From the NCBI GenBank assembly GCA_000091205.1, contig AP006502.2: 64,000 nucleotides of DNA, one strand, 5' to 3'. Source of the stretch: Cyanidioschyzon merolae. Its lineage: Eukaryota. Shown one piece after another: positions 1 through 50,745 of this stretch (position 1 is the stretch's first letter; every line of letters begins with the position of its first letter). The notes under the pieces were generated by a model, which worked only from the letters and a program-made list of their open reading frames with translations, did not search any database and was not told the DNA's origin. A program made the position numbers and the translations under genes.

Positions 1-359
1 CACTCCTGTCAGGCAAAATTTGCACGATTCCTCTCACGTATCTGGGATATGCACACTAAAGCTTGGACCTCGCTCGTGTCGTCAAAACCAGCCTACGCAA
101 ACTTTTCTGCGACTGCCTCCTTTTCCTCTCTTATCTATACATTTAAATAGGCTGCGCTCTCCGTTCCAGGCAGCTTCGTTGCCTGCAGTCGAAGGATATC
201 AGTGGCAGGGATGAAGTCTCGATCAAGTTTTAACGGACTGTTGCGAATGCATTTCAACCACGGACGGATGTTGCGATCCATGCCTCTCTTGTCATTTCCA
301 TCTTACTTGCGGACAACTTCGGTGCGCCCTTCGCTGATCCGACACTGGGCTGAGGTCAA

Positions 360-1200
360 GTGTGCCCACATGTCTATCGCAACGCCCCCTCCGAGGTGGC
401 ACTGTGGTGCAAAAGCCCTTGCCTCATGGCACGGTGCATGCCCTTGATGGCTACAGAACGCACTCCTCGATGCCCGTCTACGTCTCCGTCTGTTGTGCCG
501 TGCCCGATGACCACGGGCTTGTTCTGAGCGATCCCATATGCGAGTAGGCTGTCCGCTGCGTGGGCAAATACACTCTGTTCCATTCGATTGAGGACTTAGG
601 AAAAGCGGTTTTGTTCATGGCGGAACAATTTCAGGAAGCAGTATCAAGACTGTAAAACGAGTCGAAAAAATTTCCTTCCGCGGACGATCCCTGCGTGCAA
701 AGCGGTAACACACGCACCACGGGAAGGGATCTATGTAAAAACTCAGGCCCTAGTCAAAGAAATGTAACATGCTAATAGAAGAGAAGAAAGGATCGACGAG
801 TGTATCCCGAATGAGATATCGTGCTGGTAGCGATCGCTATTTCGTTGATATCCAAACAAGAAAGCCAGACAAGTCTTTCGAAAGGAATCGATTATTTGAA
901 CGGAGAATTTCGGTGAAGTTCCGGCACCGACTTGTGAACAATTCGCCAAGAGACGACGTCAATTTTTTTCCCCATAAATCCGTTTCCAAGAATAGGCACG
1001 CTCGTGAGTTACCCAGAAACAGAAAGATCGACAATTTGACGCATGCGTTCTTGGAGTATGCAACACTTCAGGAAAGGATACGAGTCGTGGCTTGTACGTA
1101 CGAATTGCATAGAGATACCGTTCGGTTTCCGAGCTCTTGCTCGAGAGTGTCGCGAATCATCTCGATTTCGATATCGTTATGAACTCTAGCGGTAAAGAGT
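360..1200 (+). mobile_element. Degenerate Fanzor/TnpB-like element, copy A. It spans a RuvC-II/helper-like region, a K/E-rich linker, a decayed ZnF/RuvC-III region and a conserved tail.
   Basis: The 362-547 (+) translation AVPDDHGLVLSDPI...TLFHSIEDLG parallels copies B, C and D (HGLVMVDALDKF...TLFHSIKNQWNAML). DNA at 660-800 aligns to the c3/c4 upstream region (gaaaaatttcc...gctagtgatcgagaagaaaaag). DNA at 1020-1180 aligns to the conserved tail of c1 (gatacgagtcg...cgaattg). No intact ORF remains. Confidence 0.4.
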
Positions 1201-1535
1201 CGAGGGGGGCAACGCTGAGAAGACCTCCACCGAGCACATCCTCGATGGACGTATGCGTCCATGCACCCTTTATTGCTGTACATATACGGAAAAATATGAA
1301 AAAATCACACAGCAGCAAGATCGAACACTTCAGCGCTCCACATTCATCGGAGACGCTCCGATGGCGCCACGTGTCTGATACGCAACACGCGGCGCCCTAG
1401 GCTCCGCACGAGTCGGGCGCCCACAACCGTTCGTCCAGCGTTCGATTTGAGCGCTTTGTCGCCGCTGCATTCTGCTATTAGGACGCTACTTGTTCGACTT
1501 TTCGTTTTTGAGACTGCAACGAGCCGGGTTGTTCC

Positions 1536-2696
1536 ATGTTTGCGACGTTCGGGTGCAAAGTGTTGAAATCCGGCTGCTTTCTTCACCTTCGCCTCATAGT
1601 GAGGCCAAGGAGGACCCGGCCTACAACCCGCTTTCGGACTGCAGTGCCAGCCGCTTGCGACGCCCGTTCGGTCCGAACCGTAAGTGTTGCTGGGAAATCA
1701 GACGAAGCACAGCGCTCGAATAAAATCGTACTTGATTATGTTCACGTTCCACCGAAGATCGATCGGGTAAACGAAGCCAACTTGCCGCCGATCATATTTT
1801 TGCATGGATTGCTCGCTAGCTGGAGAACGTACCGTTCTGTCTTGCAACGGCCTGATCTCGCACCTGATCGCAGCATCTATGCACTTGACCTCCGAAATCA
1901 TGGATCGAGTCCGCACAGCGAGGAAATGAGCTACGATTCAATGATCGGCGATTTGTTAGCTTTTATGACGACCCAGAACATTTCGCGCGCCTGTCTGATG
2001 GGACACAGTATGGGCGGCAAGCTGGCGATGGCCGCTGCGCTTGCGCATCCTCATGTCGTGTCAGAGCTCATTGTTATGGATGCAGCACCTGTTGTCTATA
2101 AGGACCACTCTTGGCAAATGGCGGAAGTCTCCGAGGACTCGCCCCAGGCTGTCGTTCAGGCTATTGCGAAACTAAATCCGATCCCAGCCCATATGCGAAC
2201 GCGACGGGATCTGGAGGAGGCACTTCGCAACCTGGGAATTCGCAGCCACGACGTACGACAGTTTGCGCTGACCAACCTGGTTCGAAGAGGCAACGTGGAC
2301 CAAGAAATGGCTTGGCGAGTGAATATTTCCGCAATTGCGCGGAACATGGCAGAGATCATGGGTCTTCCCAAGTGGATGCAGGAGGCGAGCAGGCAACCCA
2401 CAGACACTGCGGGCCATTCCTTCACCCAAAAGGATGCAGAAACTAAGCATGCAGTTGTATACCGCGGCCCAACGTTATTTATTCGCGGTTCGCGTAGCGC
2501 TTATGTCCAAGATGCACACTGGCCTGTCATTCGCCGTCTCTTTCCCAACGCATCGCTCGTAACAATCGATGGCGCGGGCCACTGGTTACAGAGCGAGAAA
2601 CCAGACGAATTCACCCGAATTGTGAACGCGTTTCTGAATCGCAGCACGACCTCTGTACGTGCTTCGGAGTCTCCTGCACATGAGCCAGTCTACTGA
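1536..2696 (+). CDS. ABHD11: Alpha/beta-hydrolase, ABHD11/Imo32-like (probably mitochondrial).
   Basis: ATG confirmed at 1536. Lipase-like core PPIIFLHGLLASW...RNHGSSPH...CLMGHSMGGKLAMAAA (GHSMGG nucleophile elbow) has the same motif order as ABHD11. The N-terminus is basic and presequence-like. Confidence 0.6.
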   Translation: MFATFGCKVLKSGCFLHLRLIVRPRRTRPTTRFRTAVPAACDARSVRTVSVAGKSDEAQRSNKIVLDYVHVPPKIDRVNEANLPPIIFLHGLLASWRTYRSVLQRPDLAPDRSIYALDLRNHGSSPHSEEMSYDSMIGDLLAFMTTQNISRACLMGHSMGGKLAMAAALAHPHVVSELIVMDAAPVVYKDHSWQMAEVSEDSPQAVVQAIAKLNPIPAHMRTRRDLEEALRNLGIRSHDVRQFALTNLVRRGNVDQEMAWRVNISAIARNMAEIMGLPKWMQEASRQPTDTAGHSFTQKDAETKHAVVYRGPTLFIRGSRSAYVQDAHWPVIRRLFPNASLVTIDGAGHWLQSEKPDEFTRIVNAFLNRSTTSVRASESPAHEPVY

Positions 2697-3009
2697 TGTT
2701 CCGGCGTCTGCGTAGCCAGCGACGCTTGAAAGGCGCTTCGCGGTAATTTCATTATCTATGGATGTGCCAGCGCCCATCTCATATAAATAGCACCAATATT
2801 TCGCACTGGATACCGAAAATACCTTTCTCGATACCTTAGCTGAGCGGCATGCGAATCATTGGCACTGACGTTCTCCACGCAGCGATACCGCTTCGTCGAG
2901 CTCGGTGCCACCGGATGCACCAAAGCACCAGTATCGCAACTCTGCTCCCGACTCGCGCCCGGTTCCATTGCAGCCCAGGTGCTGATAGTCGCTTTACACA
3001 TGCTCATGC

Positions 3010-3684
3010 TTATTCGTGAAGTTTCACGTCGTTTTGCAATACTCCAGCATCGTGATCCCGGGCGGGTCGATCGGCAGACACGGTTGCGTCTGCATCCGGC
3101 ACTTTGCCGATGCGTTCCCGCAACCCGTCTAGTGTCGCCTGGACAGCCAAAGCACAGTACAGATCAATAGCTCGTGCGGATTCATCGTTCCCCGGTACTA
3201 TATAGGTGGCCCAGTCCGGGTCGCAATCCGTGTCGATCACAGCGATAGACGGAATATCCACGATTCGTGCTTCCCGCAGCGCAGTTCGGTGCCGATGCGC
3301 GTCGACACAGAATATGAGATCGGGCAAATGGCCCCCAAGCCTCAGTATCTGTCGACTCGCTACGGGATTCGTCAGTGTGCCGCCGACCCAGCGACCCGAC
3401 AGTGTGAAGGCCCCGGCCTGACGAGCGCGCGTTCGTACGATGCTTTCCAGGAAAGGATCCTTGGGGCCCAACCAAAGCTGACGAAGTCCTGCACGACCCG
3501 CGGCTCGGAAAACTTCCAGGGCACGCTTTAAACAAACTGCGCTCTGCTGAAGATCAACGATGTGCATTCCATTTCGCTCGCCATAGATATAGGGGCGCAT
3601 CTTCGGGTTCCACGCTGAAGTCTTATGACCAATATGGACGCCAGCACTGAGAAGCTGACGCAGAGTTGCCTGCGAAGCAGACAT
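3010..3684 (-). CDS. MRPS2: Bacterial-type ribosomal protein uS2 (mitochondrial ribosomal protein S2).
   Basis: ATG confirmed (cat at 3682-3684). LLSAGVHIGHKTSAWNPKMRPYIYGERNGMHIVDLQQS...VDIPSIAVIDTDCDPD matches the bacterial uS2 signature (GVHFGHQTRRWNPKM...IIDL; D-rich C-terminal half). Confidence 0.65.
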   Translation of the reverse strand: MSASQATLRQLLSAGVHIGHKTSAWNPKMRPYIYGERNGMHIVDLQQSAVCLKRALEVFRAAGRAGLRQLWLGPKDPFLESIVRTRARQAGAFTLSGRWVGGTLTNPVASRQILRLGGHLPDLIFCVDAHRHRTALREARIVDIPSIAVIDTDCDPDWATYIVPGNDESARAIDLYCALAVQATLDGLRERIGKVPDADATVSADRPARDHDAGVLQNDVKLHE

Positions 3685-6495: not shown

Positions 6496-6712
6496 TTATC
6501 CTTTAGCTTGATTGCCGCTCCAGGCTCGCAGTGTGTAGTGCAGGGATCCGACTAGCCCCAGGAGTAGCAGGAGCATCACGAGCGAGTGCGGCGTGTTGAG
6601 CCCCAGAGCAACGTCGGTGGCCAGCACGACTGTAAGTAGCAGCAACGCGGCGAGCAGTGCGACCCGCTGGACACGCGTAACGAGCGGTGCTTGTGGTGGA
6701 GCTACGTGTTGG

Positions 6713-6746
<34 letters not shown>

Positions 6747-6849
6747 CTCCTGAACCCGGAACGCGCTCTGGCTGATCCTCACTGGACTTATCCAGCTGGG
6801 CAGGAGAAATGGGGCCTGCAATCACCTCACTAGACAAGCGCAAGCGCAT
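6496..6849 (-). CDS. Small hypothetical membrane protein with a polyQ tract and two C-terminal hydrophobic helices.
   Basis: The track ORF 6496-6948 starts on TTG. The first ATG is at 6849. The (CAG)10 tract encodes QQQQQQQQQQHQH. The C-terminus LLAALLLLTVVLATDVALG...LVMLLLLLGLVGSL is hydrophobic. Confidence 0.2.
6713..6744. repeat. (GCT)n/(CAG)n trinucleotide microsatellite, about 10 units.
   Basis: ctgctgctg... run seen directly in the sequence. Confidence 0.85.
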
Positions 6850-7009
6850 GATTATCAGCGTCTCGTCGTGAATAGCTGTGGCTAGTGCATAGAGCTCTGC
6901 GCCCGTCCAGGTGTGTGCGCAAGCGCTCCTGAGCAACGCTCGTGCCAATAGACTGCTTCGCTCACTTGTGGTTGTCTAGAGCGTATGTATGCTCAGTGAA
7001 ACTAAAAAA

Positions 7010-7500
7010 GTCCCACGACCGTGTAGTGTATATATGCATCCCATTGCAGATGCCTCCCGGACTTTTTCGACCGGCCGCCCACTACTGGTTGTAACGTCAT
7101 CCCGTACAATTCGACCCTGAGCGGTTCTCCCACAAAGTCGGCTCGTATCAGCTCCGGGGGTCTCTTGTCCAGCACTGCACATCTCCCGATGTTGATAGCA
7201 GCGTTAAAGTCTCGGTTCGCGAACGCTATGCGTACCCTGCCTCTGGTTGAACTCACCATTGCAAGGATTCCTCGAACTTGTGTCCTCTGTTCTACTACAG
7301 TCTCGACCTCGTCCCGTCAGGCGAGCACCTTTTCTCGTCTACCTGTCCTCTTTTTCTTCGCCGCCGCGCGCTTTCCCTTGCTCGATGAAGGGCGAGAAGA
7401 GGATTTTTTCCTTGTTTTCGGACAGCCGGCAATGAGGCCCTCTAGGATCCGCGACTTCCATCTCTATACCTTAGCCTTTTTACATTTGTAAATGAACGCA
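7010..7500 (-). mobile_element. Fanzor/TnpB-like C-terminal remnant plus conserved tail, copy c1. This is the best-preserved RuvC-III motif.
   Basis: Minus-strand translation ...ILAMVSSTRGRVRIAFANRDFNAAINIGRCAVL carries D-x-NAA-x-NI, the RuvC-III signature of TnpB/Cas12/Fanzor. SSTRG and F.NRD align where TnpB has CxxCG zinc-ribbon motifs. Downstream 7010-7200 is about 75% identical to the tails of c2, c3 and c4. Confidence 0.5.
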
Positions 7501-8678
7501 CTTCGAGAGCATTTGCTCTAAACCACGAAAAAAGCATTAAATGATACGCACTTGGCGCCAGAGCACAGTTGAGGTGAAGTGCTATGACAAGAATCCTGCA
7601 CGTGCCAGGTCCGCAGCACGTCTAACATGCTCGTTGCTTTGCTCAGGGCAGAAGGTTGAGGCGCGAGCCTGATTAGCGTTGACGCGATCTGTGTTCCCAT
7701 GAGCGAAGCTACATTCTGGTGCATCAGGCGCAGTTGAGCGGATATCGGTGAGCTCACAAGTCGCCACAGGGTATGGTGCTGTGTGCTAGCCAGTCACCGC
7801 CCGCCACGTAGAACCCCGATAGCAGGACACGCAGGATACGATTCGGAACGACGAGCAACCGGGGATCGGTGCTGACCTTCTTCAGCGCGTCCAGAGCGGA
7901 GGCGAACCCTGTGCTCTATGTTTTTTCGTTCTCGATAATAGTTCCAAGACGCTCAATAGCTTGCGCACCCGCTTCGTGTCCAGGATCCGTGAGCGTGCTT
8001 CCACCAAGCGCCAGGTGCGGCTGTCGTTCTGGAACGCTACCAGCTGTTGCGAAGCAATCGTCAGCGTCAAGGGTGCAGGCATTTCTCGAATACGGCAGCG
8101 TGGAGTAGCTCTGAAACGCACGTTCGTACTTCAGGGTGCAAATCGCGACCTGGTAGCCGTCGATGTCCGCGATGGTGCGCAGAGAAGATACCAAACGCAC
8201 CTATCCATCCATCTTCCCAACTATGCATGTGTGCATGTGTGCGTAAAAGCAAGCAGGCGGCTATCCATGCGTCTATGTGCACAGGCAACCAGCAAGCAAG
8301 CAATCAAGCAAGTTGCTTTCTCAGGTAGAAGACGATATTGTGACCTGTGCGCCACGGTCTTGTGGCCATTCAGCAGCTACTGGTATAGGCAACGCAGCAG
8401 GTGCAGGAAATGACTGCGGACTCCAGCGAGCGCTGTATCGATATTGGGACACATGTTGTGAGAGCTGAACTGCAGTTTATTGGTGTGCGTGTCCTTCCCT
8501 GCGGGGTTTCCGTCCGTCTGGTATGGGTCTCCCCATGAGCGCGTACGCAATCAGGAAACATCGCTTCGTAACGCTCGCCGGTTCCTTTCGATGACGTTTC
8601 TGCGCTCCATGCGGAGCCTCTACATAGCCGTATCTCGTTCATGATGCTAATGCATGACTTTCCATGATCATGCATACC

Positions 8679-10637: not shown

Positions 10638-11526
10638 CGTTCTGACCTTTCTTCAACAGCGCACAGTAACGCTTCCAATTATGAGTTGTAGTAAAGAACG
10701 CAAAATCATTTCGAATGAATTGTGCCGTCTATCGCCTGGACGAATCACAGTACTCGAGCAGCCGAGATACAACGGTCGAGATGGAGCACCTTGATCGTCA
10801 TCGGAGATTGATCCAGGAATCACGTTCGGTCGTTCGCCTTTAACTTCAACCAGCGGGTTTCGAATTCCGTTGGACACGCTCATTCCCGTGATTCTGGAGC
10901 CATGGATTCACGAGCGGAATTTCGACGCTGGAGATCAGTGTCGCGACGCGCGCAACACTTTCATAAATTGTCCCTAAATATCCTAAATTCATTCTTATTA
11001 TTTCTACAAATTGCGGTTCTTTTGGTGTTGCTTACCGTGCAAGTGAAAACTTTCACTGCGAGTAGGAGTCTATATTTCGGAGCTTAGACCACAGAGCACC
11101 ACGATAGTTCATTTGAACAGTGAACAAAAAGCAGCTTCAATGCATATAATGGGGAACGAGTTCGGGCAGTACCTGTCAAGGCCCGTACAGCGTCGGCACG
11201 GAAAAGTGAACGACTGAGAACCTGTAGCACATACAAATAAAGCCCACTCTGGCAATGAGAATTTTAAGCTGCCCACTGCAATACGGTACTATACTTCACC
11301 CATCTGTCTCGTATTTTGAATTACTGCAAAGCTTGCAGCCTTGTCTCTGGTATAGCCCGCCGCGCACCTGGCCAGGATTCGCTGGTTATCGCAGCGCCTT
11401 TGTTGTAAAACCGCTTTTCTGGTGCCGCCCCAGGACTCATCGTCTGCAGCATGTCTTGCAGCGGCAGAAGATGCCGCACTAGCTCGTATCGCCGATTCGG
11501 AAGCGCCAACAGCATGGTCCATATTT

Positions 11527-11644
11527 CTTTCTGGACGAGTTCGCTGCAGGAGGTCCCTAAAAGGCTGCCACGCTTCGTGTAGGATTCTTTCTGGACGAGT
11601 TCGCTGCAGGAGGTCCCTAAAAGGCTGCCACGCTTCGTGTAGGA
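11527..11644. repeat. 60-bp tandem duplication (about 2 units).
   Basis: aggattctttctggacgagttcgctgcaggaggtccctaaaaggctgccacgcttcgtgt is repeated exactly at 11581-11640 and 11521-11580. Confidence 0.85.
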
Positions 11645-17399: not shown

Positions 17400-17900
17400 A
17401 ATAAACAAAAAATGTCCTGGGACCATATAGGATAAATTAATACTCATATGTAGACACCTCTCCGCCCTTTTCGACTCGCAGACTGTTACGCATTCAGTTT
17501 TGTCCAGACAACCTTCGAGCCTGAGAGGATACCCCGCGAAGTTGGATCGCGTCAGCTCCGCGGGTCCCGTCCTCAGCACCAATGATCGCCTGATGTTTAT
17601 GGCAGCATTAAAGTACCGGTTCATGAACTTCGTGTGGGCTCTGGCGCTGGTTGCGCTCATCAATGCAAGAATTGCGGGAACTCTCGTACTCTCTGTACCA
17701 TTTGATACTCGGTCAGCTCTCTGTGCGTTTCGATCGCAAAAGCGCTTCGCGGGCACTTCTCCAGGTCGACCTTCTGAAGTGGAGACCCCAGCTCACCCTT
17801 TTGTTTATTTTAAAACGAGCGAACTTGTTTGTTCGTTTTGGTGAGGACGTTCCCGGAAGCGGGAAAGACTTGCGGATGCAAGACCGGATGTATTCTGGTA
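17400..17900 (-). mobile_element. Fanzor/TnpB-like remnant, copy c2.
   Basis: Minus-strand ORF 17397-17756: ...ILALMSATSARAHTKFMNRYFNAAINIRRSLVLRTGPAELTRSNFAGYPLRLEG. Coding and tail are both alignable to c1 (VLDKRPPELIRADFVGEPLRVE). Confidence 0.45.
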
Positions 17901-18949
17901 TCACTGTGCGCTGAACGCTTAAGCGATTCTACCAATGGAGCGCTCAATAGGCTTAATTAAAGAAAAGCGTCCTTCGATGCGGTTGAACCACGGAACATAC
18001 GGAGGAATGCAAAGCAGTTCTACTCCGATAGAATCGGCAACAGCTCCAACGCAAGGGGAATAGAGAAATGCAACGTTGTCCAATAGAAAAGCGTCGCCAG
18101 ACGTCAGGGGAAAGTCTTCAATGGCTCGACGTAATGGGCGCTGTTGTATGAGTCTTCTCTACGAGCGAAACTGAGGCCGTAAAATGAATTCACCCCAGCT
18201 AGAACAGAAGATGGTGTCGTCATTCTCCGCGAGTTCAACCGTACATTCAGCAGGCGCCCAGATCTGCGAGTACCCATATACGCTCCGACCGTTTCATCCA
18301 AGGCAAGTCTCATCGAATGAAAGAACAGACCGACTTCACTCTGCCTCAGATCGATAGCGACGTTCCTGGAAACTGTCGTTGCGATTTCGATGGAGGACGG
18401 TCGTTCATGGCATTGGACATTTTCGCGACTGTATCCCAGTGTTTTTAGGACCATACGAACTAGCTATTGAGAAACAGATACGCCGTTGGCGGCTACCACT
18501 GTCGCTTTTGCTTTCCGTAAGGTGATCAACTGGTCGTTTGCTGCCATTTAACGCAGTCAGTCTTTAAGAATATCGGACATTGTCGCAGAGCGCATATTCA
18601 GGGTTCTTTCAGTGTTCCTTAGGTATCTGAGTTCTTTTACGTGGATGACCTGATGGAGGAATGCAGTCCTCCTTACACACGTCAGTAAAGAATATATATA
18701 TCCTGCAGGAAATTTTTCTACGATCTATAGAGTACATTGCATATTGACACTGATCTCCTGGTCGTCACCGCGAAAAAACATTCAATGACAAGCAGCAGTG
18801 CTGGAACACAGTGAGTTGAGGACGATCAACGGAATGCTTGCTCGTATAATCTTTCATCTCAAGTGTTTTGCCCCTCTGCTGCGCGTCATCAAATGCTTTT
18901 TCGTGCTTTCTAGCAGACGCGTATGAACTGCGTTTGTTCTCAAAAACAA

Positions 18950-19420
18950 AACATATAAGGAAAAAATTATGGACATAGAATTCGGGGATCCTGGAGGATC
19001 GCCATCCCCGAGTTCCAGAGAGAAACTGAAAAATTTCCCTCTCGCCAACCATCGAGCGAAGAAGAGCTAGTGATCGAGAAGAAAAAGAAAATGAAATGCG
19101 GAGATAGGCGAAAAATCGTGTTTAGCTCACGGGACGGTGACGGGATTGTAGTGGCGCGGAGGGCACAAGTTCGCAGAAGCCTTGTAATGTTGAGTTCGAC
19201 TAAAGCGAATAATCGTGTAGAGTTCATGAACCGAGGACTTAACGCTTCCATCAATATCAGACGATGTGTAGCGCTGAAGGAATTAGCCTACGTACTTCGT
19301 GGGGGAGCCTCTCAGGCTCGAAGTGAACAAGAGAAACTGAAATCGATAGCGGGGAGTTCGTCAAAAAAGGCCGGAAGCGCCTGCTAGTTGATGTGTATAT
19401 GCACTCTGTGGTCGCGAAAC
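18950..19420 (+). mobile_element. Fanzor/TnpB-like remnant, copy c3.
   Basis: ORF 19070-19387 (+): IEKKKKMKCGDRRK...LVMLSSTKANNRVEFMNRGLNASINIRRCVALKE. Tail 19290-19420 aligns to the c1 tail (cttcgtggggagcctctcaggctcgaagtg...gtcaaaaaaggccgg...tatatgcact). Confidence 0.5.
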
Positions 19421-19499
19421 CGATTTCGTATCATCGTCCATACACGTAACTCGAATGTACTACAAAGTTTAGGTCTTTCCCGTTTTAGCCAGGGCAAGC

Positions 19500-19700
19500 A
19501 TTTGCGGATATTTTTTCCGCGACTACTTCCTTTCCCTCTCTCTGATCTCCGACTTTAAAATGCGTAGGTCTCTCTTTCCCCTCAGCTCTGCTGTTGCGAA
19601 TCGAAGGAGGTTGATGGCATCGTTCAAGTTCGGACGACACAACACTATGCTGTATCCAATGCATTTAATTTACAGGTAAAATTTGCACTCAACGCACCGC
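19500..19700 (-). mobile_element. Short Fanzor-remnant fragment (tail plus RuvC-III-edge), copy c6, tail-to-tail with c3.
   Basis: Plus-strand 19540-19660 (ccgactttaaaatgcgtaggtctctctttcccc...aaggaggttgatggcatcgttcaagttcgg) aligns to c5 (ccgacctcaaatacgcggctctcttctctccc...aaaggatgttgacggcagcgctcaagtccc) and to c1. Confidence 0.35.
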
Positions 19701-19889
19701 TTCCCGGTTCCATCTTCTCGATTGGATGCAGCATCGGTGCGCCCATTGCGGTGGTGATACTAGGCTTTGGTCTGGTCTTCCCGTATGTCCATCCGAATGC
19801 TTCCACTTCCTCATGCTGTGCTGTAGCTCGTAGAAAATTGCTCGACCGCTCGGGACATGTCCTTGAGCGGTAGAGAGGCTCGCCTCAAT

Positions 19890-20750
19890 GCCCTCCTCCG
19901 TTCTCGTATCCGGTGCTGTACTCTGTGATCACGCCCTTATGCTAAGCGATCCCCGCGTCGAGCGCCCTCTCCGCTGCACATGCAAGGACACGCGGTTTCA
20001 TTCGAAAAAGAACTTGTGGAACATGGAATTCCCCATGACGTCAAAAGTAGTCGAACGACAATTCCTACTGGAGACCGACACAAAAAATAAGATATTTCGA
20101 CGCTGTATTTGTGAAAAGCGGCAGCGCTCTCTCCAATGGAAGCCATCCCTGCGATAACGAAAGCCCGAGTTCAAGACCGTTTCCTAAGCGAACGTAATAA
20201 ACTGGAGCATCTCGGAGCAAATAGCGTGAGAGGTAATGCTGCCGTTGAGTTGCATTTATTTTTCGGCCACAAAGGGTGAAGGATTGGCTCATCGAACGGC
20301 ATCGATTATTAGACGTGAGAATTTTTGTGAAATCTACGCACGAGCATGTGAGCAAGTCATCAGGAGGCAACGTCGAGTTTCTTTCCTCGCCCAACGAGAG
20401 GCGCGAATGGCGCACCCTCGAATCGCCTTCAACCAGCATGATTGAAAACCTGAACCATAAGTGATTTGAGTATGTGACTCGTATGGAAAGAAGAAGGGAG
20501 GAGGCTTTTACGAGTGTACTGGACAATTATATCTCTTGTTTACGAAGCATGTTCGATGGCATCGCGTCTCCTATTGAAATCGATGACGTAACGAAGTCCA
20601 GTGGCACAGCGTCAAATGCGCCACTCCAAAGAGCGCGACCTAGAATCCTGAAATTCGTTATGAATCCATGCGCCTTTACTTCAGAACTTTGGATCTCGAG
20701 GCTGTACTTGTAAGAAAGTTCAAGAAAATATTCAAGGCAGGAACAGAACG
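19890..20750 (+). mobile_element. Degenerate Fanzor/TnpB-like element, copy D (RuvC-II/helper-like region through to the tail).
   Basis: 19888-20157 (+): SGAVLCDHALMLSDP...TRFHSKKNLWNMEFPM parallels HGLVLSDP...TLFHSIKNQWNAMLSM of copies A and C. NVEFLSS at about 20370 resembles the RVEFMNRG zinc-ribbon remnant. Tail 20580-20720 is about 80% identical to 25690-25830 (the tail of copy B). Confidence 0.4.
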
Positions 20751-24104: not shown

Positions 24105-24559
24105 TTGCGGCAATGTTTCTTGAGCGTGGCGGGCTTTTGGCAATTTCCGGAATCAGGGATTCGCTTGTAAAAATAGAATGCCACATCTATTCGGGATATG
24201 TGTACATGTTCAGAGCATGCGCCTCACCCGTATTGAGATTGTCCATCGAGAACCTGGTGGGCGGTTTTGGAATCAGAAACCGCCCAGGTGTTTCCATAGC
24301 CCAGGATGACTGGATCGTCTCGCAGCGCTCCGGGATGAAAAGGATCGATGACCGTGAACAACTGCGTACCTTACTGGACTGTACCTGGCGCATGGCGCTC
24401 CTGGGAAGGCCCCTGCTTGCCCAAAGGCGACTGCTGATCAACCAGAGCATGCGGAAGCGCCGAATTCTTTTAAGGCGACGCTTCAACGATCCAACGATAC
24501 GGTTTTGCGCCCCCTACATCCATCGCAACATGAATTGGAACAGTTCCTACAACACGGGC

Positions 24560-24830
24560 GTATGAACTAAAGTTCAGGTCTCTTCCAAGTGTGATTGACA
24601 GCAGCCTTTTTGAGCTCTCTCTACGACGGCTTCCTCATCCCTTCGCCGTCTCCTTTCCGACCTCAAATACGCGGCTCTCTTCTCTCCCTGCACCTCTGCC
24701 CTTAGTAATCAAAGGATGTTGACGGCAGCGCTCAAGTCCCGATTTCGCCGCTTCCGGCTGTTGCCTGCGCATTGCAGGAATAGGTACAATTTGGAATCTA
24801 CGCATGACTTGCTATTTTCATCGTTCTTGT
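24560..24830 (-). mobile_element. Fanzor-remnant fragment, copy c5 (internally deleted), head-to-head with copy B.
   Basis: Plus-strand aaggatgttgacggcagcgctcaagtcccgatttcgc...cattgcaggaatagg aligns to c1 cccgatgttgatagcagcgttaaagtctcggttcgc...cattgcaaggattcc. The upstream tail is conserved with c1 and c6. Confidence 0.4.
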
Positions 24831-24989
24831 ATGTATTGTCGGTGCTCCTTTGGTAGCAGCGCTATTTTTGGTCGTAGACAGGTCATCCAGCATATCCATC
24901 ACACTTACTACTGCGAAAGTCGCCTTGTGGATCGTGAACACAATCCTCATCGCTCGGTTCATGCCCTTGACCGGTACAGAGAGCTCACT

Positions 24990-25830
24990 TTGATGGCCTC
25001 ATTCGTTTTTACATCCAGTGTGGTACTCTATGGTGACGGGCGTGTTGTGAGCCATTCCTTCGGCAAGTACTCAGTTGGCTGCACGTGCAAAGCACATGTT
25101 ATTCCATCCGATTGAGGATTCGTGGAATGCAATGCTGTCCACAATGAAACAAGTGCGGAAAGGAAAATATACCCTTGAGAAGAAGTCGAGAAATCTCGAT
25201 CCATCTCTGCAGCCTTCATACAAAGAGGTGATGCACGCTCCACTGGAAGCGATCACCGCGGGGATTGCATTGCGAATCAAAACCACTACTTTCGTACCAA
25301 GGAAAGAGACGAGAGCATCTGTGATCATATCTCGTGAGAGATACAATTCTGCTATCGAATGGCTTTTCGTGAATTACCGCAACGAGAGGAGTGCTTGTCT
25401 TTAGACCTGCGTTGAGTTTGTTGACCGGAGAAGATCCATGATCTCTAGGCATGGGCTTGTGAAGAACTCATCAAGAGACGACACTGAGGTTCGCTCCTCG
25501 TCAACCAATGGCGCGAATCGCTGCGCCCAGATGTGACAGTGAAACGGAAAGATCGAAAAATGGACGAGTTCGGGATTGGAGCACCCCACACACGTACGGA
25601 AAGGACGTGCGTTGGGTCTTGCACGCACGAATTGGATAATCATATCGGTTATTTTACGTACCCTGGTTTGATTGCGTCGCGAATCATCCCGTTGCCAGTG
25701 GAGTAACGAATTCCAGCGGCACAGCGACGCAGGAACCACTAAGAAACGCCGGCCGAGAATCCTAAAATTACGTATGGATCCGAATTCTCGAATTGCTACG
25801 TTTCGAAGATCTTGGCTGTATACTTAAAAT
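24990..25830 (+). mobile_element. Degenerate Fanzor/TnpB-like element, copy B.
   Basis: 25075-25404 (+): LFHPIEDSWNAMLSTMKQV...LEKKSRN...ERYNSAIEWLF (RuvC-III remnant, compare RGFNAAINI). Tail 25480-25700 aligns to the c1 tail (cagatgtgacagtg; gcacgcacgaattgg). Extreme tail 25690-25830 matches 20580-20720. Confidence 0.45.
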
Positions 25831-35829: not shown

Positions 35830-36973
35830 ATCATCAGAATTTTTCATATCCGTATCGTGTGCTTGGGCGAGTTGCAATACTCAAGTGTGGCAGCCAACAC
35901 GAACAGGAAATCGCTCTCCGGTACCGAATGGTCTCATGAGCTGCATCGTATTGTCTGTTGATGAGTTGATTGCATTGTCGTGCAGGGAACCTCAGGAGCG
36001 GCTATGGTGATCGGGAATCCCGTTTCAGGCTGGCACCGCTGGACCGAACAAGAATGCACCGTAATCCCTGGATACACAGAGGCGCACTGAACCCATCCAT
36101 GTGAAGCAGGCATGGTGTGAGGCTCCTTCGCAATAAATGGACGCCGCTTGCACCTTGTATGAGGTGCGAATTGTTTGTAGACAATTCGTCGGGAACGTGC
36201 TGATATTCAAGATATCGATGCTGGTGGGTAATTCCGGCAGCAGTGCGCAACTGCGCGCCGAGTCCTTCGAGTGTACTTGCATCCAGTATGGCTTCGCCGC
36301 ATGCCGGCCTCTAAGCCGTGCGAGCAGGGCTTACTCCTTTGCTTTTATCTGTGACAGCCAACACGAGAAGCATACTCGAGTTAGCGCCAACCGATCGTAC
36401 GGGTTCTGAATGTAACCGAGGCACCCAGCAGGCGTGTCGGAACTCTTGTGGATGCATATGCTGGACCGGCGTTCCAGAGCGAACGATTCGAGAAATGGGG
36501 CACTGTTTCGGACTTGTGGGCGCGAGGTCAAGGGCGGCGTAGGTGCGTTCGCAAACGCCGAAGTTGCACGATGCCCCGTTATCGAGGTTTTGTCGATACG
36601 ATTGGGGAGTAAACTCCTGGGTCGATTTTAGCATTCGGTGGCGTCTAGAACGTTCGTTTGGCCCGGATATCGATATGCACGAACTCTCCTGAACGAATGG
36701 CCGGGTCATGTTTAGACACACTCAGTAATATCGAATAATGCAACACCATTCTCGATTGGCAGTCGCCCAGGGATACCATTCCGACTACATAAATACGATG
36801 TTGCAGACTTGTTGTATTCCTGACCATACCATACTACTGAATTGCTCCAGGCGAGAATCAGATGCCGCCTCTCTAATGTCCTTGAATTCGTTTATCAAAG
36901 GTCGTCAGCGATTCAGGGCAATGCCCACGGCCTGTACGCAACGATCCGCTCCGGGGTCCGTTCGATGCAGAGC

Positions 36974-38137
36974 TCATGCGCGTTTCGCTAGCAGAGGCCA
37001 TCTCCGAACGTTGTTCGACAGACGCTCATATCTCGATCCATAAAGGGCCGTCACACGCTTCGACAGGTAAACGCACACAACTGCATGCCGCTCGCTCTCG
37101 TTGCTCGCTGCATCGGACGTTATCTCAGCGTACCGTGCAACATCTCGAGCGTCCGGCTCTGTTTCACGCTCTTCTCCTCTACCGGCATCAGCGCGCAACC
37201 GTGCTCTTGATTTCTGCATATTGTCCTGCATCCATCGATAAGCATCGGAAAGAATCGATTCCTTCGCTCGTTGCACGCTCTCGTAGATGCAGCAGGAATG
37301 CAGCCCGAGCGCGTTCCAGCGCCTCGAGCGGCAGTGCGCTGCCACCGAACAGCACGACGCATCATGCACTATCGGGTTGATGTTCATGTTCATGTTCATG
37401 TTCATGTTCATGTTCATGTTCAAGTCCATGTCCTTGATCAAGTCCTTGAGCGTGTCCACGTCCATGTCCATTTCATGGAAACCGTTGGCCAGTCTGCGCT
37501 TCTTGCCTCCGTGCAGCCGGAGCATCGGCGAGTCCGGTGCGGCTCCATCTAGTGCCTCCATAGATTGTCTGCATGAGCCATTTGGACGCTCATGTGCTCC
37601 GTGAATGCGGCGTTCAGAGAATACCTCAGACCGCTGGATTCGGCGCTCAGAGCGTCAACATGGGTCACGACGCTGTCCTTGCACTCGCTGGTAGACCGCT
37701 GGGCGCCCGCCATGTCGGGCTCCCGTTCATGCCCTTCCCTGCACAAGCTGCGCAGTTGCATTTGCTCGCCCTGAGGATCTCCGGATACATCCCCTCGATG
37801 TAGAGATACTGCATCTGAGATGACGGTTTCCAGCTGCGGATCCGGGTCCGCCGCAATGTTCGTCTCGTCGTCTACCCTGACAGGTTGAAAAAGCTGCTCG
37901 TCGGCTGACGCTGGCCTCGGTTTCATGGAGTCTGTGTTTGTGTGTGTGTGTGTGCGTATGTGTGCAGACGGACAGTCCGTCGGTGCATCGTCCCTGTGCA
38001 TTTCGTCTTGTTTCCTTCGTGTGACAGAGAAACCTTGAACGAGCCTCTGCTCTGCTCTGCTCTGCTCTGCTTGAGGCTGCTCGAGCGATACGTCGCTGCT
38101 CGAAGAGATACCAGACCCTCTTCGCTATCCGCTTCAC
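36974..38137 (-). pseudogene. Hypothetical gene inside duplication copy 1, frameshifted relative to copy 2 by a (TG)n length difference.
   Basis: ORFs 36974-37561, 37549-38001 and 37727-38137 (-) together cover the same protein as copy 2 ORFs 49604-50167 and 50155-50745. The HTHTHTH tract sits at the frame break. Confidence 0.25.
37376..37422. repeat. (ATGTTC)n hexanucleotide microsatellite, about 7 units. Its partner at about 50006-50029 has 4 units.
   Basis: Seen directly. It encodes a (MN)n/(HV)n low-complexity tract in overlapping ORFs. Confidence 0.9.
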
Positions 38138-39339
38138 TGGGATGCCCGGTCATGGTCTGGTTGCTATGCTCTACGTCTGTTTTCCTCCTTGAGAAGCACA
38201 CGGACTGGATGGGCACTGTTACTAAGACTCGCCTTCTCTGTGTATGTATCGGCGCTCTCTCGGACACGTTTTCGTTACCTTCTTGAACGCGAGCGTGTCC
38301 ACGCACTGAAACGTGCCCCTGCGCTCCCTCCTGTGCAAGAGACGCGGCCCAACACGGTAGTTCAGGGCTGGTGGAGGTATCGCAAGCGTCGTCGAAAAAC
38401 TCGAGTGTTACGGACGTGACTGACGCACCACTAGATCCGTGAGCGTCAGAGCGGCTTTTGCCAACAGAAAAGACGCTTTCGACTGGAATGGACCAACGGA
38501 GAGTAGACTGGCAGGAAGCGCAGCTCTACGCAGTCTCAGCTGCATACTCGGTGACTGCTTCTTGTTGTGACGGGAACCGACGTTTTCTAGCAGCAGGACA
38601 GAAGAGCTTGGGAACGAGGTTCCGTGAGCACTTCTTAGAAGATTGAGGTTTTTGAAGGATCCGGGCTGTTCAGCGATCTCGGGGCGACCAGACGTGTTAC
38701 CCGCCGCTAGCTAGGACTGTTGTTGCCGTCGCGCTCGCTTGTCTTGGCTGAACGAACTGCGAATCGCCCCTCTTTAACTACCCGTGCGCAAGTCTACGCG
38801 TTCTCACGAACAAAGTCGCATCGAGTGAGACATGCAGCAGTCTGTCCCACGGTAAGCGATCCCTGAACAATACAAAAGCAAAGCTGAGCTGAGCTGAGCT
38901 GTCCGACACAGGATACGTTCCGGTGGCATCGCGCTTTCTCCCGCGTCCATTGGTGGCCCTTCACCGCTCTTCGTATCATGGGTACGGAAGTTTCAGAAAC
39001 TGTGGCTTTGCCAGTAGAGCTTCATAGCGAACGCTTGGAGACGAATGGAATGACGAGACGACGGTCGTGGAGATCGAGGTCCATAGGTTGCACGTCGGGT
39101 GCACCATGTCCAGACCGAGGACTAGGCAGCGAATGGCCCGTGCATCTGCCCACCGAAGAATGCCTGAATACTACACCTAAGATCCTCTGTCGCATGCTAC
39201 CAGAGACATCATAAAGTCGTCCCGCAACGCTCTTCCAACATGCTGGATACAGTCCATTAGTTGAGTGCCTGCGAGAAAAACAGAGGACGACGATGAAAAC
39301 GGCGTGCTGGTACAGGAGCTCCAGAATGCACTGCTCTGT

Positions 39340-43329: not shown

Positions 43330-45099
43330 CCACCACGTCCTGTGACGACTCAGTATAAAACCTGTGCCCAACCCTGCGCGTAAAACTCAATGAAAACAAA
43401 GCGCGTGATACCTGGAAGCGCAAGGCGGATCGCAGAACAGAAATCTCTGTTCATTGTAGGAGAAATAGGCATTCGATCGATCCGAGTATGGACGCGTGGC
43501 CTGGGGAGCAAACAGCGCCGGCTGGTGGCGCCTCGAGGGCCGGTGGCGGCACGTGCCGCTTCCGCGCACAGGGCGGCGCTTTTGTTGTGGCCCGGACCTA
43601 GCGGGGAAGCCGACGGAGATGGTTCATATTTGTCTATTAATGAATAAGAATATGAAGCGGCAGCAGGGCAATCGAGGTCTCCGCGCTCTTGCGCGTACCC
43701 CGCTGGACAGGAAAATGCGTACGCGCGCGCGGCTCGCATCCGATGATCGACACCTGTGATCGATACACATGCGATACTGAACTGCTCGTGCTATCCCTGC
43801 GTTGTGACTTGTCGCAAATTGCAGCGTTAAACGGACAACCTAGAGATCAAAAGTGCATGCATAGGAGATTACGGGTGCATATATAGGTATACGATTTTTG
43901 ATCGATTTTGTTCGGAGTGGGTTCTTCGAAGCTTTTGCGCCTGGGATTCGTTACGTTCCCAGAAACAAGATGACTGGGGGCGGCGCCCACAAATAATGAT
44001 TGGGAAAATAACCAATGTCGCGATGCAGCGTATGCGTCCAAGTCTCCGCTATTCTTCTATCGTTACATGTATCATGTTCAAATCACGTATTCTTCGTGGT
44101 TTCGATCGCACTGTTCTGAAGCGAGTCGTGCACGCAGTAATGCACGTCGCCGGATTGGCCACGAAACCAGAGCTCAACGTCGACTCTCGAAGGCGTTTTT
44201 CACATCGAATCATTTGTCTCGTTCGAAACACAAATCCGCCTCTGTTTCGAGGCATCGACCAATCGGCATTCGCCTGGAGCATAATACCTGTCACGGGATA
44301 TGCTCGCAAGGGCCCCTGTCTCTTCTCTTTGCATTCAAAAAAGGGTACTGGACACGAGCTCCAGTTATCGCAACGATCACTTCCCGTGGACCATAAGCGG
44401 ATGGAAAACTCTCGATCTCTCCTCTAACCTGGATTCCGCTTCCGAAACGTGTTCCATCATGACCAAGATCGCGTTTCATAAATCCCGTCTCGAATGGAAC
44501 ACTGCGCGCTTGCGCTCGCGGAGGATACCCTATTTACTGCGTGAATCGCACAGAAAAAACATGTGATCATGCGATACGACGATGTGTGCGAAAATGCAGG
44601 ACGGTACCGAAAGAAGCCTTCCGTAGTGTCCAGGTACATGCGGCAATCGATGAAGCAAGCGTTCAAGCTGCACTAGCCGCCGATAAAAGAGAGGGCACTT
44701 GTTGCGATGGACATCTGGGACGCCTGACCGCTGCCAAGTGTCACTGCTGCGAGGGACGAACCGAGGTCGCGTTCGAAGAACGTGCGTAGATCACAACTTT
44801 TGCCGGTGCATGAATCGCGTGAACAACACCCAGAAGCAGCGAAATCGGCGACTTGGACGCTACGATCAATACCCCTTGACCGGCATTAACAGAGCTGAAC
44901 AGACAGGAGAGATCGACGTAATCTGAGCCTGAGACCATACGGAGGTAAGGCAGGCAGTCGGAGACGAATCCCTCAAAGACTTTTGTTCATGACTGTGGGA
45001 AGCATCCCAAACTTGAGAATGTACGCTCGAGTTAGACCAGTGGACCTGCACCTTTCGATTCTGATATCGCGAGATGCTCGGTCGAGCAAAGAAGCAGAC

Positions 45100-45660
45100 G
45101 TCGACCGGGGGCTGGCGGGTACATCTATTCAGCCAATCCCAGACGCCTTCCAGCCTTTATTAGGCCGGCCGACTGCTAACGGTTTCAGTTTATCCGGGCA
45201 CACTTCGAACCTCAGAGGCAAACCCCACGAAGCTGGATTACGTCAGGCCGTCGTGTCTCGTCTTCAGCACCACACAGCGTCTGATATTGATAGCAGCGTT
45301 GAAGCCCCGGGTCACGAACTCCATGCGTTTGTTGCCTCTGGTCGAACTCACAAGTGCAAGAATTGCTAGAACTCGTGCCCCATCAGAGCCACTACAGTCT
45401 CGACATTGTCCTGTCGGGCAAGCACCGTGTCCCGCACATCTCCGCTCTTCCTCGTCTTTTGCTTCTACATCACTTGCTCTTCTTCGCTCGATCGTCGGCG
45501 AGAAGAGGATTTTTCTGTTTCCTTTCCAGTACCCGGCGATCTCGGGCCCGCCAGGACCCCTGACTTGCACGTCCATATCCGCCCCTTGGGTTTCTTACTT
45601 GTCCAAACGAGCACATGTCGAAAACGTCCAGCATAAACCGCAAAAAAAAGCACTTGACGC
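45100..45660 (-). mobile_element. Fanzor/TnpB-like remnant, copy c4.
   Basis: ORF 45238-45576 (-): ...RRCAGHGACPTGQCRDCSGSDGARVLAILALVSSTRGNKRMEFVTRGFNAAINIRRCVVLK. A cysteine cluster is retained upstream of RuvC-III. Upstream DNA is about 80% identical to c3 (atcgagcgaagaagagc.agtgat). The tail aligns to c1. Confidence 0.5.
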
Positions 45661-45787
45661 AACGCACCTGGAGATGGAACGCAATTCAGATGAAAGTCCA
45701 GAACGCACGCTGCGGCACCGGATCGCCGCAAGATCGCAGGCGCGCAGCGTGCACAGACGGCGCCTTTGCCGCTGAGGGTAGCGTCCG

Positions 45788-46010
45788 TCACGAGAAGCGG
45801 CCTGTGCGCGTCTGTCACGAGAAGCGGCCTGTGCGCGTCTGTCACGAGAAGCGGCCTGTGCGCGTCTGTCACGAGAAGCGGCCTGTGCGCGTCTGTCACG
45901 AGAAGCGGCCTGTGCGCGTCTGTCACGAGAAGCGGCCTGTGCGCGTCTGTCACGAGAAGCGGCCTGTGCGCGTCTGTCACGAGAAGCGGCCTGTGCGCGT
46001 CTGTCACAGC
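45788..46010. repeat. 27-bp minisatellite, about 8.5 perfect units (GTCACGAGAAGCGGCCTGTGCGCGTCT).
   Basis: Seen directly. It translates as (HEKRPVRVC)n or (VTRSGLCAS)n in overlapping ORFs and lies immediately beside remnant c4. Confidence 0.9.
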
Positions 46011-49603: not shown

Positions 49604-50745
49604 TCATGCGCGTTTCGCTAGCAGAGGCCATCTCCGAACGTTGTTCGACAGACGCTCATATCTCGATCCATAAAGGGCCGTCACACGCTTCGACAGGTAA
49701 ACGCACACAACTGCATGCCGCTCGCTCTCGTTGCTCGCTGCATCGGACGTTATCTCAGCGTACCGTGCAACATCTCGAGCGTCCGGCTCTGTTTCACGCT
49801 CTTCTCCTCTACCGGCATCAGCGCGCAACCGTGCTCTTGATTTCTGCATATTGTCCTGCATCCATCGATAAGCATCGGAAAGAATCGATTCCTTCGCTCG
49901 TTGCACGCTCTCGTAGACGCAGCAGGAATGCAGCCCGAGCGCGTTCCAGCACCTCGAGCGGCAGTGCGCTGCCACCGAACAGCACGACGCATCATGCACT
50001 ATCGGGTTCATGTTCATGTTCATGTTCAAGTCCATGTCCTTGATCAAGTCCTTGAGCGTGTCCACGTCCATGTCCATTTCATGGAAACCGTTGGCCAGTC
50101 TGCGCTTCTTGCCTCCGTGCAGCCGGAGCATCGGCGAGTCCGGTGCGGCTCCATCTAGTGCCTCCATAGATTGTCTGCATGAGCCATTTGGACGCTCATG
50201 TGCTCCGTGAATGCGGCGTTCAGAGAATACCTCAGACCGCTGGATTCAGCGCTCAGAGCGTCAACATGGGTCACGACGCTGTCCTTGCACTCGCTGGTAG
50301 ACCGCTGGGCGCCCGCCATGTCGGGCTCCCGTTCATGCCCTTCCCTGCACAAGCTGCGCAGTTGCATTTGCTCGCCCTGAGGATCTCCGGATACATCCCC
50401 TCGATGTAGAGATACTGCATCTGAGATGACGGTTTCCAGCTGCGGATCCGGGTCCGCCGCAATGTCCGTCTCATCGTCTACCCTGACAGGTTCAAAAAGC
50501 TGCTCGTCGGCTGACGCTGGCCTCGGTTTCATGGAGTCTGTATTTGTGTGTGTGTGCGTGTGCGTATGTGTGCAGACGGACAGTCCGTCGGTGCATCGTC
50601 CCTGTGCATTTCGTCTTGTTTCCTTCGTGTGACAGAGAAACCTTGAACGAGCCTCTGCTCTGCTCTGCTCTGCTCTGCTTGAGGCTGCTCGAGCGATACG
50701 TCGCTGCTCGAAGAGATACCAGACCCTCTTCGCTATCCGCTTCAC
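49604..50745 (-). CDS. Hypothetical protein encoded in the duplicated segment (two overlapping ORFs, 49604-50167 and 50155-50745, offset by one frame).
   Basis: D/E-rich, HT-repeat and MN-repeat low-complexity ORFs. The frame offset falls at a microsatellite. This could be an unspliced short intron or a frameshift. Confidence 0.25.

Follow-up and report, generated by a model that had tools for sequence, protein, structure and literature searches.

Tails of Fanzor1 remnants in Cyanidioschyzon merolae as probable decayed 3'-terminal coding sequence of the CMe-1A transposon family

The 64,000-nucleotide stretch of Cyanidioschyzon merolae DNA analysed here (contig AP006502.2; referred to below as the window) contains several remnants of a nuclease gene, each of which had been described in the initial annotation as followed by a conserved non-coding tail, a candidate scaffold of an omega-RNA. 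The question raised by this locus is whether the tails represent such an RNA module or owe their similarity to something else. The positional part of the proposal, that the guide RNA derives from the nuclease gene's 3' end together with the right end of the transposon, agrees with the characterised Fanzor and TnpB systems, Fanzor omega-RNAs being transcribed between the end of the ORF and the right end (PMC10432273). The omega-RNA of SpuFz1 consists of a 75-nt scaffold and a 14–15-nt guide and lies downstream of the stop codon (PMC10432273; PMC10530073), whereas that of GtFz1 overlaps 17 codons of its gene and that of ISDra2 TnpB overlaps more (PMC10432273; PMC10530073).

Nuclease remnants in the window and their parent family

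The genes for eIF6 and a phosphate transporter present in the window correspond exactly to BAM83306.1 and BAM83293.1, and the host is thus C. merolae strain 10D, a species in which a single Fanzor1 family, CMe-1A, has been reported (Bao & Jurka 2013, Mob DNA 4:12; PMC3627910). This family comprises ~150 copies, each ~80% identical to a 3169-bp consensus whose ORF (906–3107) encodes the 734-residue protein CMe-1; it has neither terminal inverted repeats nor a known transposase, and its target-site duplications are undetermined (PMC3627910). In the consensus, taken from the supplement of the same paper, the stop codon (3108–3110) is followed by only 59 nt to the end of the element. Some 8–10 nt past the published end are semi-conserved (TTTGNTGGTG), with unique flanks beyond. 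A full-length element located on a metagenome contig (L005, 2352–5508) is 86% identical to the consensus over all 3169 bp. The features of the window discussed in the text, with the positions of their parts in the consensus as given by local alignment, are as follows.

c1, 6965..7585, minus strand: internal-deletion derivative of CMe-1A of ~0.62 kb, with consensus 787 to ~1070 joined to ~2840–3169 (blastn, local alignment); the 5' piece lies at 7585 to ~7300 and the 3' piece (~2840–3085) at 7287–7045; 78% identity
c1 RuvC-III motif NRDFNAAINI, 7188..7217, minus strand: from the translation of ORF 7002..7259, aligned with CMe-1 and P0003–P0006
c1 tail, 7023..7193, minus strand: last 57 codons of CMe-1 (consensus 2937–3107), with the equivalent of the stop codon near 7020–7022
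c1 post-stop region, 6965..7019, minus strand: 59-nt 3' UTR and right end of CMe-1A (alignment, fold, comparison with the consensus)
c2, 17442..17808, minus strand: CMe-1-like Fanzor 3' fragment with no 5' piece (consensus 2728–3092, 70.5% identity); tail at 17442–17597
DDE_3 remnant, 17970..18330, minus strand: decayed Tc1/mariner-type transposase immediately upstream of c2 in the same orientation (translation)
c3, 18844..19450, plus strand: internal-deletion derivative, consensus 785–1016 joined to 2809–3084 and beyond (3' identity 68%); tail from 19253
c4, 45075..45695, minus strand: internal-deletion derivative, consensus 793–1070 joined to 2842–3083 and beyond (3' identity 69.5%); tail from 45288 down
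A, 1..1200, minus strand: remnant of a second Fanzor-like family, motif RD..A..IL at ~108–341
B, 24450..25720, minus strand: second copy of the family of A, C..(x)..C..NRDLSAAVNIL at ~24628–24861
19520–20390 and 58550–59710: further copies of the A/B family, which with A and B make four
44000–44950: fifth copy of the A/B family, in the orientation opposite to that of the other four

The homology claimed among the segments at 7010–7200, 17400–17600, 19290–19420, and 45100–45240 is well founded. The tails of c1–c4 are related far beyond chance (Smith–Waterman z 17–43 against shuffles; self-blastn of the 64-kb window, E 8e-21 to 4e-43), and the similarity does extend, as had been described, past the RuvC-III motif NRDFNAAINI. 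In the self-comparison, 7030–7408 of c1 aligns with 45123–45514 of c4 (69.5% identity) and 7170–7550 of c1 with 19276–18880 of c3 (65.6%), while 17478–17683 of c2 aligns with 45168–45374 of c4 (72.1%) and 18968–19350 of c3 with 45577–45175 of c4 (70.7%). The earlier observation is thus partly confirmed: four of the six tails reported as alignable are related, their pairwise identity (58–69%) is below the 70–80% stated, and, as described below, the tail is coding.

The two tails that do not belong are those of A and B, which align only with each other (68% identity in the self-comparison) and have no similarity to the tails of c1–c4 or to the CMe-1A consensus (z −0.3 to 1.9). Four copies of the A/B family carry on the minus strand, in one frame, the pattern C..C..C..C followed by RD..AA.NIL, the readings being LQCAGNSRKRRNRDLSAAVNIL; GKRCVECKFYL.IKCIGYSIVLCRPNLNDAINLL; PQKRYRDFSAAMNTL; and LKLDRDFIPATDIL. 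Coding on the plus strand (ALDGYRT ... RERYNSAIEWL) was considered and rejected, the minus strand being favoured by the occurrence of the motifs in one frame in four copies. The plus-strand string LTAALKSRF is what NRDxxAAxN yields when read in antisense, and c1 and c4 show the same. On the coding strand, the segments taken as the tails of A and B lie 800–950 nt 5' of the motif and therefore are not downstream tails. A and B belong to a family other than that of c1–c4, and the initial annotation had read them on the wrong strand.

All four c copies are recognised by the CMe-1A consensus at the nucleotide level. In blastn searches, c1 (7287–7045) matches consensus 2840–3085 with 79% identity (E 3e-55), followed by c2 (71%, E 3e-30), c4 (79%, E 3e-23), and c3 (70%, E 1e-8); the 5' pieces of c1 and c3 are also found, at consensus 785/840–969, and local alignments of the copies yield 68–78% identity. 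Over stretches of 240–365 nt the window DNA is 68–79% identical to the consensus from the same species, and protein identity reaches 60% over the last 96 residues. The window copies resemble the published family in being old and decayed and in having no visible terminal inverted repeats. Thus, c1–c4 belong to CMe-1A, a family already known.

None of the copies is complete, in which they differ from the family as published. Coding similarity to CMe-1 is restricted to its last ~90–125 residues (tblastn E 3e-30 for c1 and 1e-8 for c3), the remainder of the gene being deleted. Only the third RuvC motif is retained, unaltered in c1 but mutated in c2 (NRYF), c3 (NRGL), and c4 (TRGF). The copies are interrupted by stops and frameshifts and have mutated catalytic residues, and an active nuclease from any of them is ruled out. 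The 5' boundary common to c1, c3, and c4, together with their identical in-frame deletion, identifies these three as copies of one non-autonomous derivative of ~0.62 kb. The suggestion that non-autonomous derivatives are present is thus borne out for these copies by the deletions mapped to the consensus; such an internal-deletion form is absent from the published description of the family, as far as that was accessible. In turn, c2 is fused to the DDE_3 remnant, whose match to Pfam DDE_3 (E 3.8e-5) falls short of the curated cut-off.

The assignment of the remnants to the TnpB/Fanzor type is also upheld, through the published family and through a search by fold. The parent protein contains the motifs of the RuvC triad, ADPGNT, (I/V)DEFRTS, and NRDFNAAINI. 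Sequence searches of Pfam and PDB with the remnants, the ORFs of the L005 element, and the CMe-1 consensus gave nothing significant: phmmer found nothing in PDB, and the TnpB/Cas12f zinc-ribbon profile TNB (PF07282) reached only E 0.2–0.5 over 11 residues. The zinc-finger cysteines are partly missing from CMe-1; a relative, P0115, has a precomputed match to PF07282. Since sequence profiles are uninformative here, family membership was settled by the published consensus and by the fold. Intact distant homologues (P0091–P0094, 31–43% identity) were retrieved with the consensus protein as query, and one of them, P0091 (43% identical to CMe-1), has an AlphaFold model of moderate confidence (pLDDT 61.8). 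In a Foldseek search of PDB, the best seven matches of this model are structures of GtFz, PpFz, and SpuFz (E 3.6e-11 to 3.3e-10, probability 1.00), with low TM-scores of 0.28–0.37 to these Fanzor1 structures, and the Cas12 proteins that come next have E of at least 0.05. The Fanzor1 fold is thus recognised, at ~4e-11, in the model of P0091, which is a relative and not a window copy.

The tail as part of the parent coding region

The tail of c1 lies inside an 85-residue ORF on the minus strand (7002..7259) that begins just upstream of NRDFNAAINI. In a tblastn search with CMe-1, 7307–7029 of c1 aligns with residues 639–734, that is, to the final residue of the protein, with 60% identity (E 3e-30), and the tail corresponds to residues ~678–734. 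The tail had been taken as non-coding; in c1 the ORF is open throughout it, and it equals the last 57 codons of CMe-1. Both parts of the proposed arrangement, the coding remnant as well as the non-coding tail, are coding sequence of the parent gene. The conservation of non-coding sequence is consequently no argument for an RNA module.

Comparison with relatives of CMe-1 supports the same reading frame. Short metagenome relatives found by protein search, including P0003 and P0004, are open through the tail to the stop codon, with the pattern NRDFNAAINxRxCAVLExRPPELTRxNFVGQPLKVELYxKKLEAVVGGRSKKxGRRLxxxxRRFV*, and one of them is located on the contig of the full-length L005 element. In the more distant homologues P0091–P0094 the first half of the tail is retained (RRCxxLxxRPxxLxRxxFxGxPL), and the protein ends ~28 codons short of the CMe-1 stop. 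Of the three sequence blocks described as shared by the tails, the first two encode FVGEPLRVELYG and GGRSKKSGR, and only the third is within the short 3' UTR. The first block owes its conservation to the protein it encodes, its motif being kept in homologues only 31–43% identical; as a nucleotide block, its sole match within three mismatches is in c1.

The tail was further said to be conserved about as well as the coding remnant beside it, which the window copies contradict. Their pairwise identity is 59–80% in the 94 nt around RuvC-III, 58–69% in the tail, and 35–62% after the stop, so that divergence in the tail is no slower than beside it. For the parent family, diversity was calculated from 80 loci with 67 unique 3' ends, 85–90% identical to the consensus. 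Upstream of the tail, diversity at codon positions 1, 2, and 3 is ~0.10, ~0.08, and ~0.28 in these 67 sequences, a clear coding signature; in the tail, the corresponding values are 0.16, 0.16, and 0.17 at consensus 2937–2996, and 0.17, 0.09, and 0.23 at 2997–3056. In the parent family, selection acts on the tail as protein-coding sequence. The diversity of the 3' UTR over all sites is 0.29, level with synonymous sites. At seven four-fold-degenerate sites at consensus 2952–2987 diversity is 0.085, compared to 0.294 elsewhere (p = 0.001); because an equally deep dip in synonymous diversity occurs near 2385, this low value is suggestive, not decisive.

RNA structure in the window copies, the parent family, and a sister family

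The folding of the window tails is not distinguished from that of shuffled sequences. Their minimum free energies have z of −1.45 to +0.11, with the antisense strand no different, at variance with a stable fold. RNAalifold applied to the four tails gave −13.65 kcal/mol with a covariation term of +1.12 and one compensatory pair, compensatory meaning that both sides have changed and pairing is kept. The inverted complementarity pointed out previously (GACTTT and AAAGTC) is present at 7061–7066 and 7135–7140, but one 6-nt inverted pair in 190 nt is what chance would provide. A search of the window against Rfam gave no match at the gathering score and only chance-level matches at E up to 10. The post-stop region of c1 contains the third shared block and a hairpin specific to this copy (GTGGGAC..GTTTCAC), and c1, c3, and c4 each have a terminal hairpin of their own.

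In the parent family, RNAalifold found in 47 copies of CMe-1A over 250 nt only nine pairs (−3.25 kcal/mol), none of them compensatory. An exhaustive helix scan of CMe-1A copies yielded numerous short helices whose pairs are simply conserved, double changes being nearly absent. A structure built by hand from all candidate helices has 15 pairs changed on both sides, compared to 12.0 ± 2.1 after shuffling, and 71 of 500 shuffles reach 15. The compensatory changes concentrate in two hairpins of the UTR, namely a 5-bp hairpin after the stop (GGCGSG..CSCGCC, with C-G in 21 copies and G-C in 17) and the terminal hairpin, while the four helices within the coding tail have 0–5 each. A long-range helix between the coding tail and the UTR (AGTAGTGG/CCACTACT), taken from the fold of the consensus, was rejected, as it has no compensation. 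A single consensus terminal hairpin also fails, since the subfamilies use different registers for their GC-rich hairpins (CGTCGTTCGA/TCGAACGGCG versus CGTTTTTC/GAAAGGCG). The mean z of the coding tail is −0.80, compared to +0.02 to −1.15 for six other coding segments; the UTR has −1.27, the last 130 nt a mean of −1.72, somewhat better than shuffles, and 260 nt of the consensus −2.1. Three weak signals, namely the conserved four-fold-degenerate sites, the folding of the last 130 nt, and the two UTR hairpins, point to some constraint at the nucleotide level in the parent family that coding alone leaves unexplained.

Neither the four window tails nor the 47 copies thus exhibit covariation or a stable shared fold, and common transposon descent explains the similarity of the tails, outcomes that the initial annotation had itself named as speaking against its proposal. 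Of the properties of an omega-RNA scaffold that were examined, the tail has only the position, running from the RuvC-III motif to the end of the element; a conserved covarying structure, a stable fold, and a match to a described RNA family were looked for and not found.

That such a structure can be detected in this clade is indicated by the sister family of mariner-Fanzor1 elements (PUl-1 and PGv-1, Bao & Jurka 2013; loci L087–L095, identified in this analysis). Their proteins are 43% identical to CMe-1 and have the C-terminal tail motif in common with it, and a DDE_3 gene precedes the Fanzor gene as in the layout of c2. The nearest relatives of CMe-1 (P0091, P0092, and P0095–P0098), originating from saline and other metagenomes, belong to elements in which the Fanzor gene comes after a DDE_3 transposase gene. 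In contrast to CMe-1, the mariner-Fanzor1 stop codon comes ~28 codons earlier and is followed by a non-coding region of ~190 nt that extends to the terminal repeat (...GAGTATA). The consensus fold of this region in six sequences has 36 pairs, 14 of them compensatory, and in a core of 31 pairs 16 are changed on both sides, compared to 6.6 ± 1.8 after shuffling (a value reached in 0 of 500 shuffles) and 1–6 in slid controls. This strong covariation shows that the method is able to detect an omega-RNA-like element in the clade.

A covariance model built from the core of this sister-family RNA (R1) gave nothing significant in the window or in the CMe-1A loci. With filters off, the c1 tail (6967–7092, minus strand) scored 8.0 bits (E 3.7), seventh among matches at chance level, and the 3' end of the full-length L005 copy was absent from the matches. 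Homology between the 3' end of CMe-1A and the structured RNA of the sister family is therefore unsupported by the covariance model, and the presence of that region remains a difference between the two families.

Origin of the tails and meaning for the CMe-1A family

Taken together, the tails of c1–c4 are very probably decayed 3'-terminal coding sequence of CMe-1A copies, their similarity having been inherited from a common transposon ancestor. A single in-frame internal-deletion derivative of ~0.62 kb, which starts at consensus ~785–793 and in which the first ~55 codons adjoin the last ~90 codons plus the right end, is ancestral to c1, c3, and c4; c2 is a 3' fragment behind a remnant of a mariner-type transposase. 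The copies have since decayed through stops, frameshifts, and mutated catalytic residues. The deletion derivatives are inferred to have kept the 3' ~330 nt for functions of the end that act in cis, and by analogy with GtFz1 and ISDra2 TnpB the same segment may also bear an omega-RNA. For the window copies themselves, the omega-RNA reading is not supported, and there is no sign of a currently functional RNA in them.

The situation in active copies may have been different. With a 3' UTR of only ~59–70 nt, any omega-RNA scaffold of CMe-1A would have to overlap the end of the ORF. All characterised Fanzors depend on an omega-RNA made at the 3' end, and a stretch of the tail may therefore have served two purposes. 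An omega-RNA overlapping the end of the ORF in the parent family is plausible by comparison with GtFz1 and ISDra2 TnpB (Saito et al. 2023), in which the corresponding region is likewise at the 3' end of the gene beside the right end. These systems had their RNA sequenced from the ribonucleoprotein; the coding part of CMe-1A has no shared fold or covariation.

Whether, in active CMe-1A, such a scaffold overlapped much of the coding tail, making the window tails relics of a module used for both purposes, is doubtful, although several observations point that way. The position fits that of an omega-RNA (PMC10432273; PMC10530073); the UTR of 59 nt, even with the ~8–10 nt beyond it, is below the 75-nt scaffold of SpuFz1, so that the scaffold would have to extend partly into the ORF; the synonymous sites at 2952–2987 are conserved as a cluster; the terminal 130 nt fold somewhat better than shuffles and contain two covarying hairpins; and exactly this 3' end is retained in the deletion derivatives. 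Against these stand the coding tail of the 47 copies, with neither consensus fold nor compensatory changes, the overall diversity of the UTR, no lower than that of synonymous sites, and the second synonymous dip of the same depth near 2385. Moreover, a free third position of a Val codon in the helix AGTAGTGG/CCACTACT varies without compensation, and the best that the sister-family model offers is its chance-level match to the c1 tail, with nothing significant in CMe-1A.

It is about equally doubtful that the 3' ~330 nt were kept purely as a right end at the DNA level, recognised by the transposition machinery and with no RNA function. A GC-rich hairpin, varying in sequence and register, is present at the very 3' end in every subfamily; the boundary to unique flanks ~10 nt past consensus 3169 is clean; and the derivatives have a common 5' boundary. 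However, CMe-1A lacks the terminal inverted repeats, known transposase, and determined target-site duplications that would define such an end (PMC3627910), and the synonymous conservation 150 nt inside it would be left unexplained. This reading is also compatible with the one that invokes an RNA.

A more far-reaching version, which we can only put forward as improbable, would see the 28-codon extension specific to CMe-1 as read-through into the formerly non-coding omega-RNA region of a mariner-Fanzor ancestor; the scaffold would then lie almost wholly in coding sequence, and the ~0.62-kb derivatives would be, or would once have been, guide-RNA-only modules serviced in trans by intact copies. 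Least likely is that c1, c3, and c4 are maintained as modules of this kind today, supplying omega-RNAs in trans to intact Fanzor copies: three copies of one derivative with a common 5' boundary (consensus ~785–793) do occur within 64 kb, and a published precedent exists in the ~550-nt 'ghost' derivatives of S. punctatus that keep the omega-RNA region (PMC10432273; PMC10530073), but the window copies differ by 31–42% in the tail and still more beyond the stop, fold no better than shuffles, have terminal hairpins specific to each copy, have lost the post-stop hairpin of the family in c1, and bear no trace of purifying selection. The ghost loci of S. punctatus (Saito et al. 2023) are likewise short, multi-copy Fanzor1 derivatives that retain the 3' end; they are flanked by no coding remnant of this kind but have inverted repeats of 30 nt, and their 3' region is non-coding and resembles an expressed omega-RNA, whereas in the strongly diverged derivatives of C. 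merolae inverted repeats are absent and the retained sequence is coding.

With the tails read as inherited coding sequence, what at face value would be a red-algal guide-RNA module not described before is in fact a catalogued transposon family found again, and knowledge of how Fanzor systems work is unchanged by these results. For the biology of the family, the Fanzor1 element of C. merolae also exists there in a short internal-deletion form, and the 3' UTR of CMe-1A is unusually short, hence the overlap with the ORF that any omega-RNA of this family would require. The well-supported structured 3' RNA of the sister mariner-Fanzor1 family could guide experiments.

Structured 3′ regions and nucleotide-level constraint

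In the mariner-Fanzor1 elements found in metagenomes, which combine a DDE_3 transposase with Fanzor1, a non-coding region of ~190 nt extends from the Fanzor1 stop to the terminal repeat (...GAGTATA).

Non-coding 3′ region of ~190 nt in mariner-Fanzor1 loci
L087, 3255-3482
L088, 3617-3810
L089, 3601-3796
L093, 2152-2340
L095, 3152-3365

The consensus fold of this region shows covariation in 16 of the 31 core pairs, a result equalled by none of 500 shuffles, and a search of Rfam with the region gave no match. It is a strong omega-RNA candidate.

Within the Fanzor1 family CMe-1A, seven clustered four-fold-degenerate sites are conserved (diversity 0.085 versus 0.294, 67 family copies), which constitutes constraint at the nucleotide level.

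Consensus 2952-2987, corresponding to window 7143-7178 in the decayed copy c1, minus strand: conserved four-fold-degenerate cluster

A hairpin, CTGGAG..CTCCAG, sits amid this cluster and is disrupted in the window copies. Past consensus position 3169, the flanks at loci L007-L086 retain ~8-10 semi-conserved nucleotides (TTTGNTGGTG) and are unique beyond; CMe-1A probably reaches slightly past its published end or, alternatively, has a target preference.

Surroundings of the window copies

Several metagenome contigs from hot springs also carry the c1 ORF, at 96-99% identity (protein clusters P0001 and P0002), and therefore the c1 insertion is old and common to related strains. A second ORF lies directly downstream of the c1 element end, its poly-Q stretch encoded by a (CTG)n run at 6717-6745.

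7002-7259, minus: 85-aa ORF of c1
6496-6948, minus: 150-aa ORF containing the poly-Q stretch

A second Fanzor-like family is represented in the window by five decayed copies with the signature C..C..C..C followed by RD..AA.NIL.

1-1200, minus: second-family copy
19520-20390, minus: second-family copy
24450-25720, minus: second-family copy
58550-59710, minus: second-family copy
44000-44950, plus: second-family copy

Two of the five abut the 3′ ends of the CMe-1A derivatives c3 and c4, tail-to-tail, which suggests either duplication of a single composite unit or an insertion preference. The 5′ end of c4 adjoins a tandem array of ~54-nt units (45781-46007, 98-99% identity), and a perfect 60-nt tandem duplication occupies 11525-11644.

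Strongly decayed Fanzor-like remnants are also carried, one per copy, by a 2.7-kb dispersed repeat with 97% identity between copies. They match residues 423-652 of the CMe-1 protein in tblastn (24% identity, E 2e-8 to 3e-7), and in both copies a short repeat, 'T*T*T*', breaks up the remnant.

36720-39468 and 49350-52111: 2.7-kb dispersed repeat
37084-37866 and 49714-50472, minus: Fanzor-like remnants

Possible mariner link of CMe-1A

Directly upstream of c2, a 3′ fragment of CMe-1A, and on the same strand, lies the remnant of a transposase.

17970-18330, minus: Tc1/mariner DDE_3 transposase remnant

The order of this remnant and c2 is identical to the gene order in the intact DDE_3 and Fanzor1 elements of loci L088-L095, a shared arrangement which hints that CMe-1A descended from a mariner-borne Fanzor.
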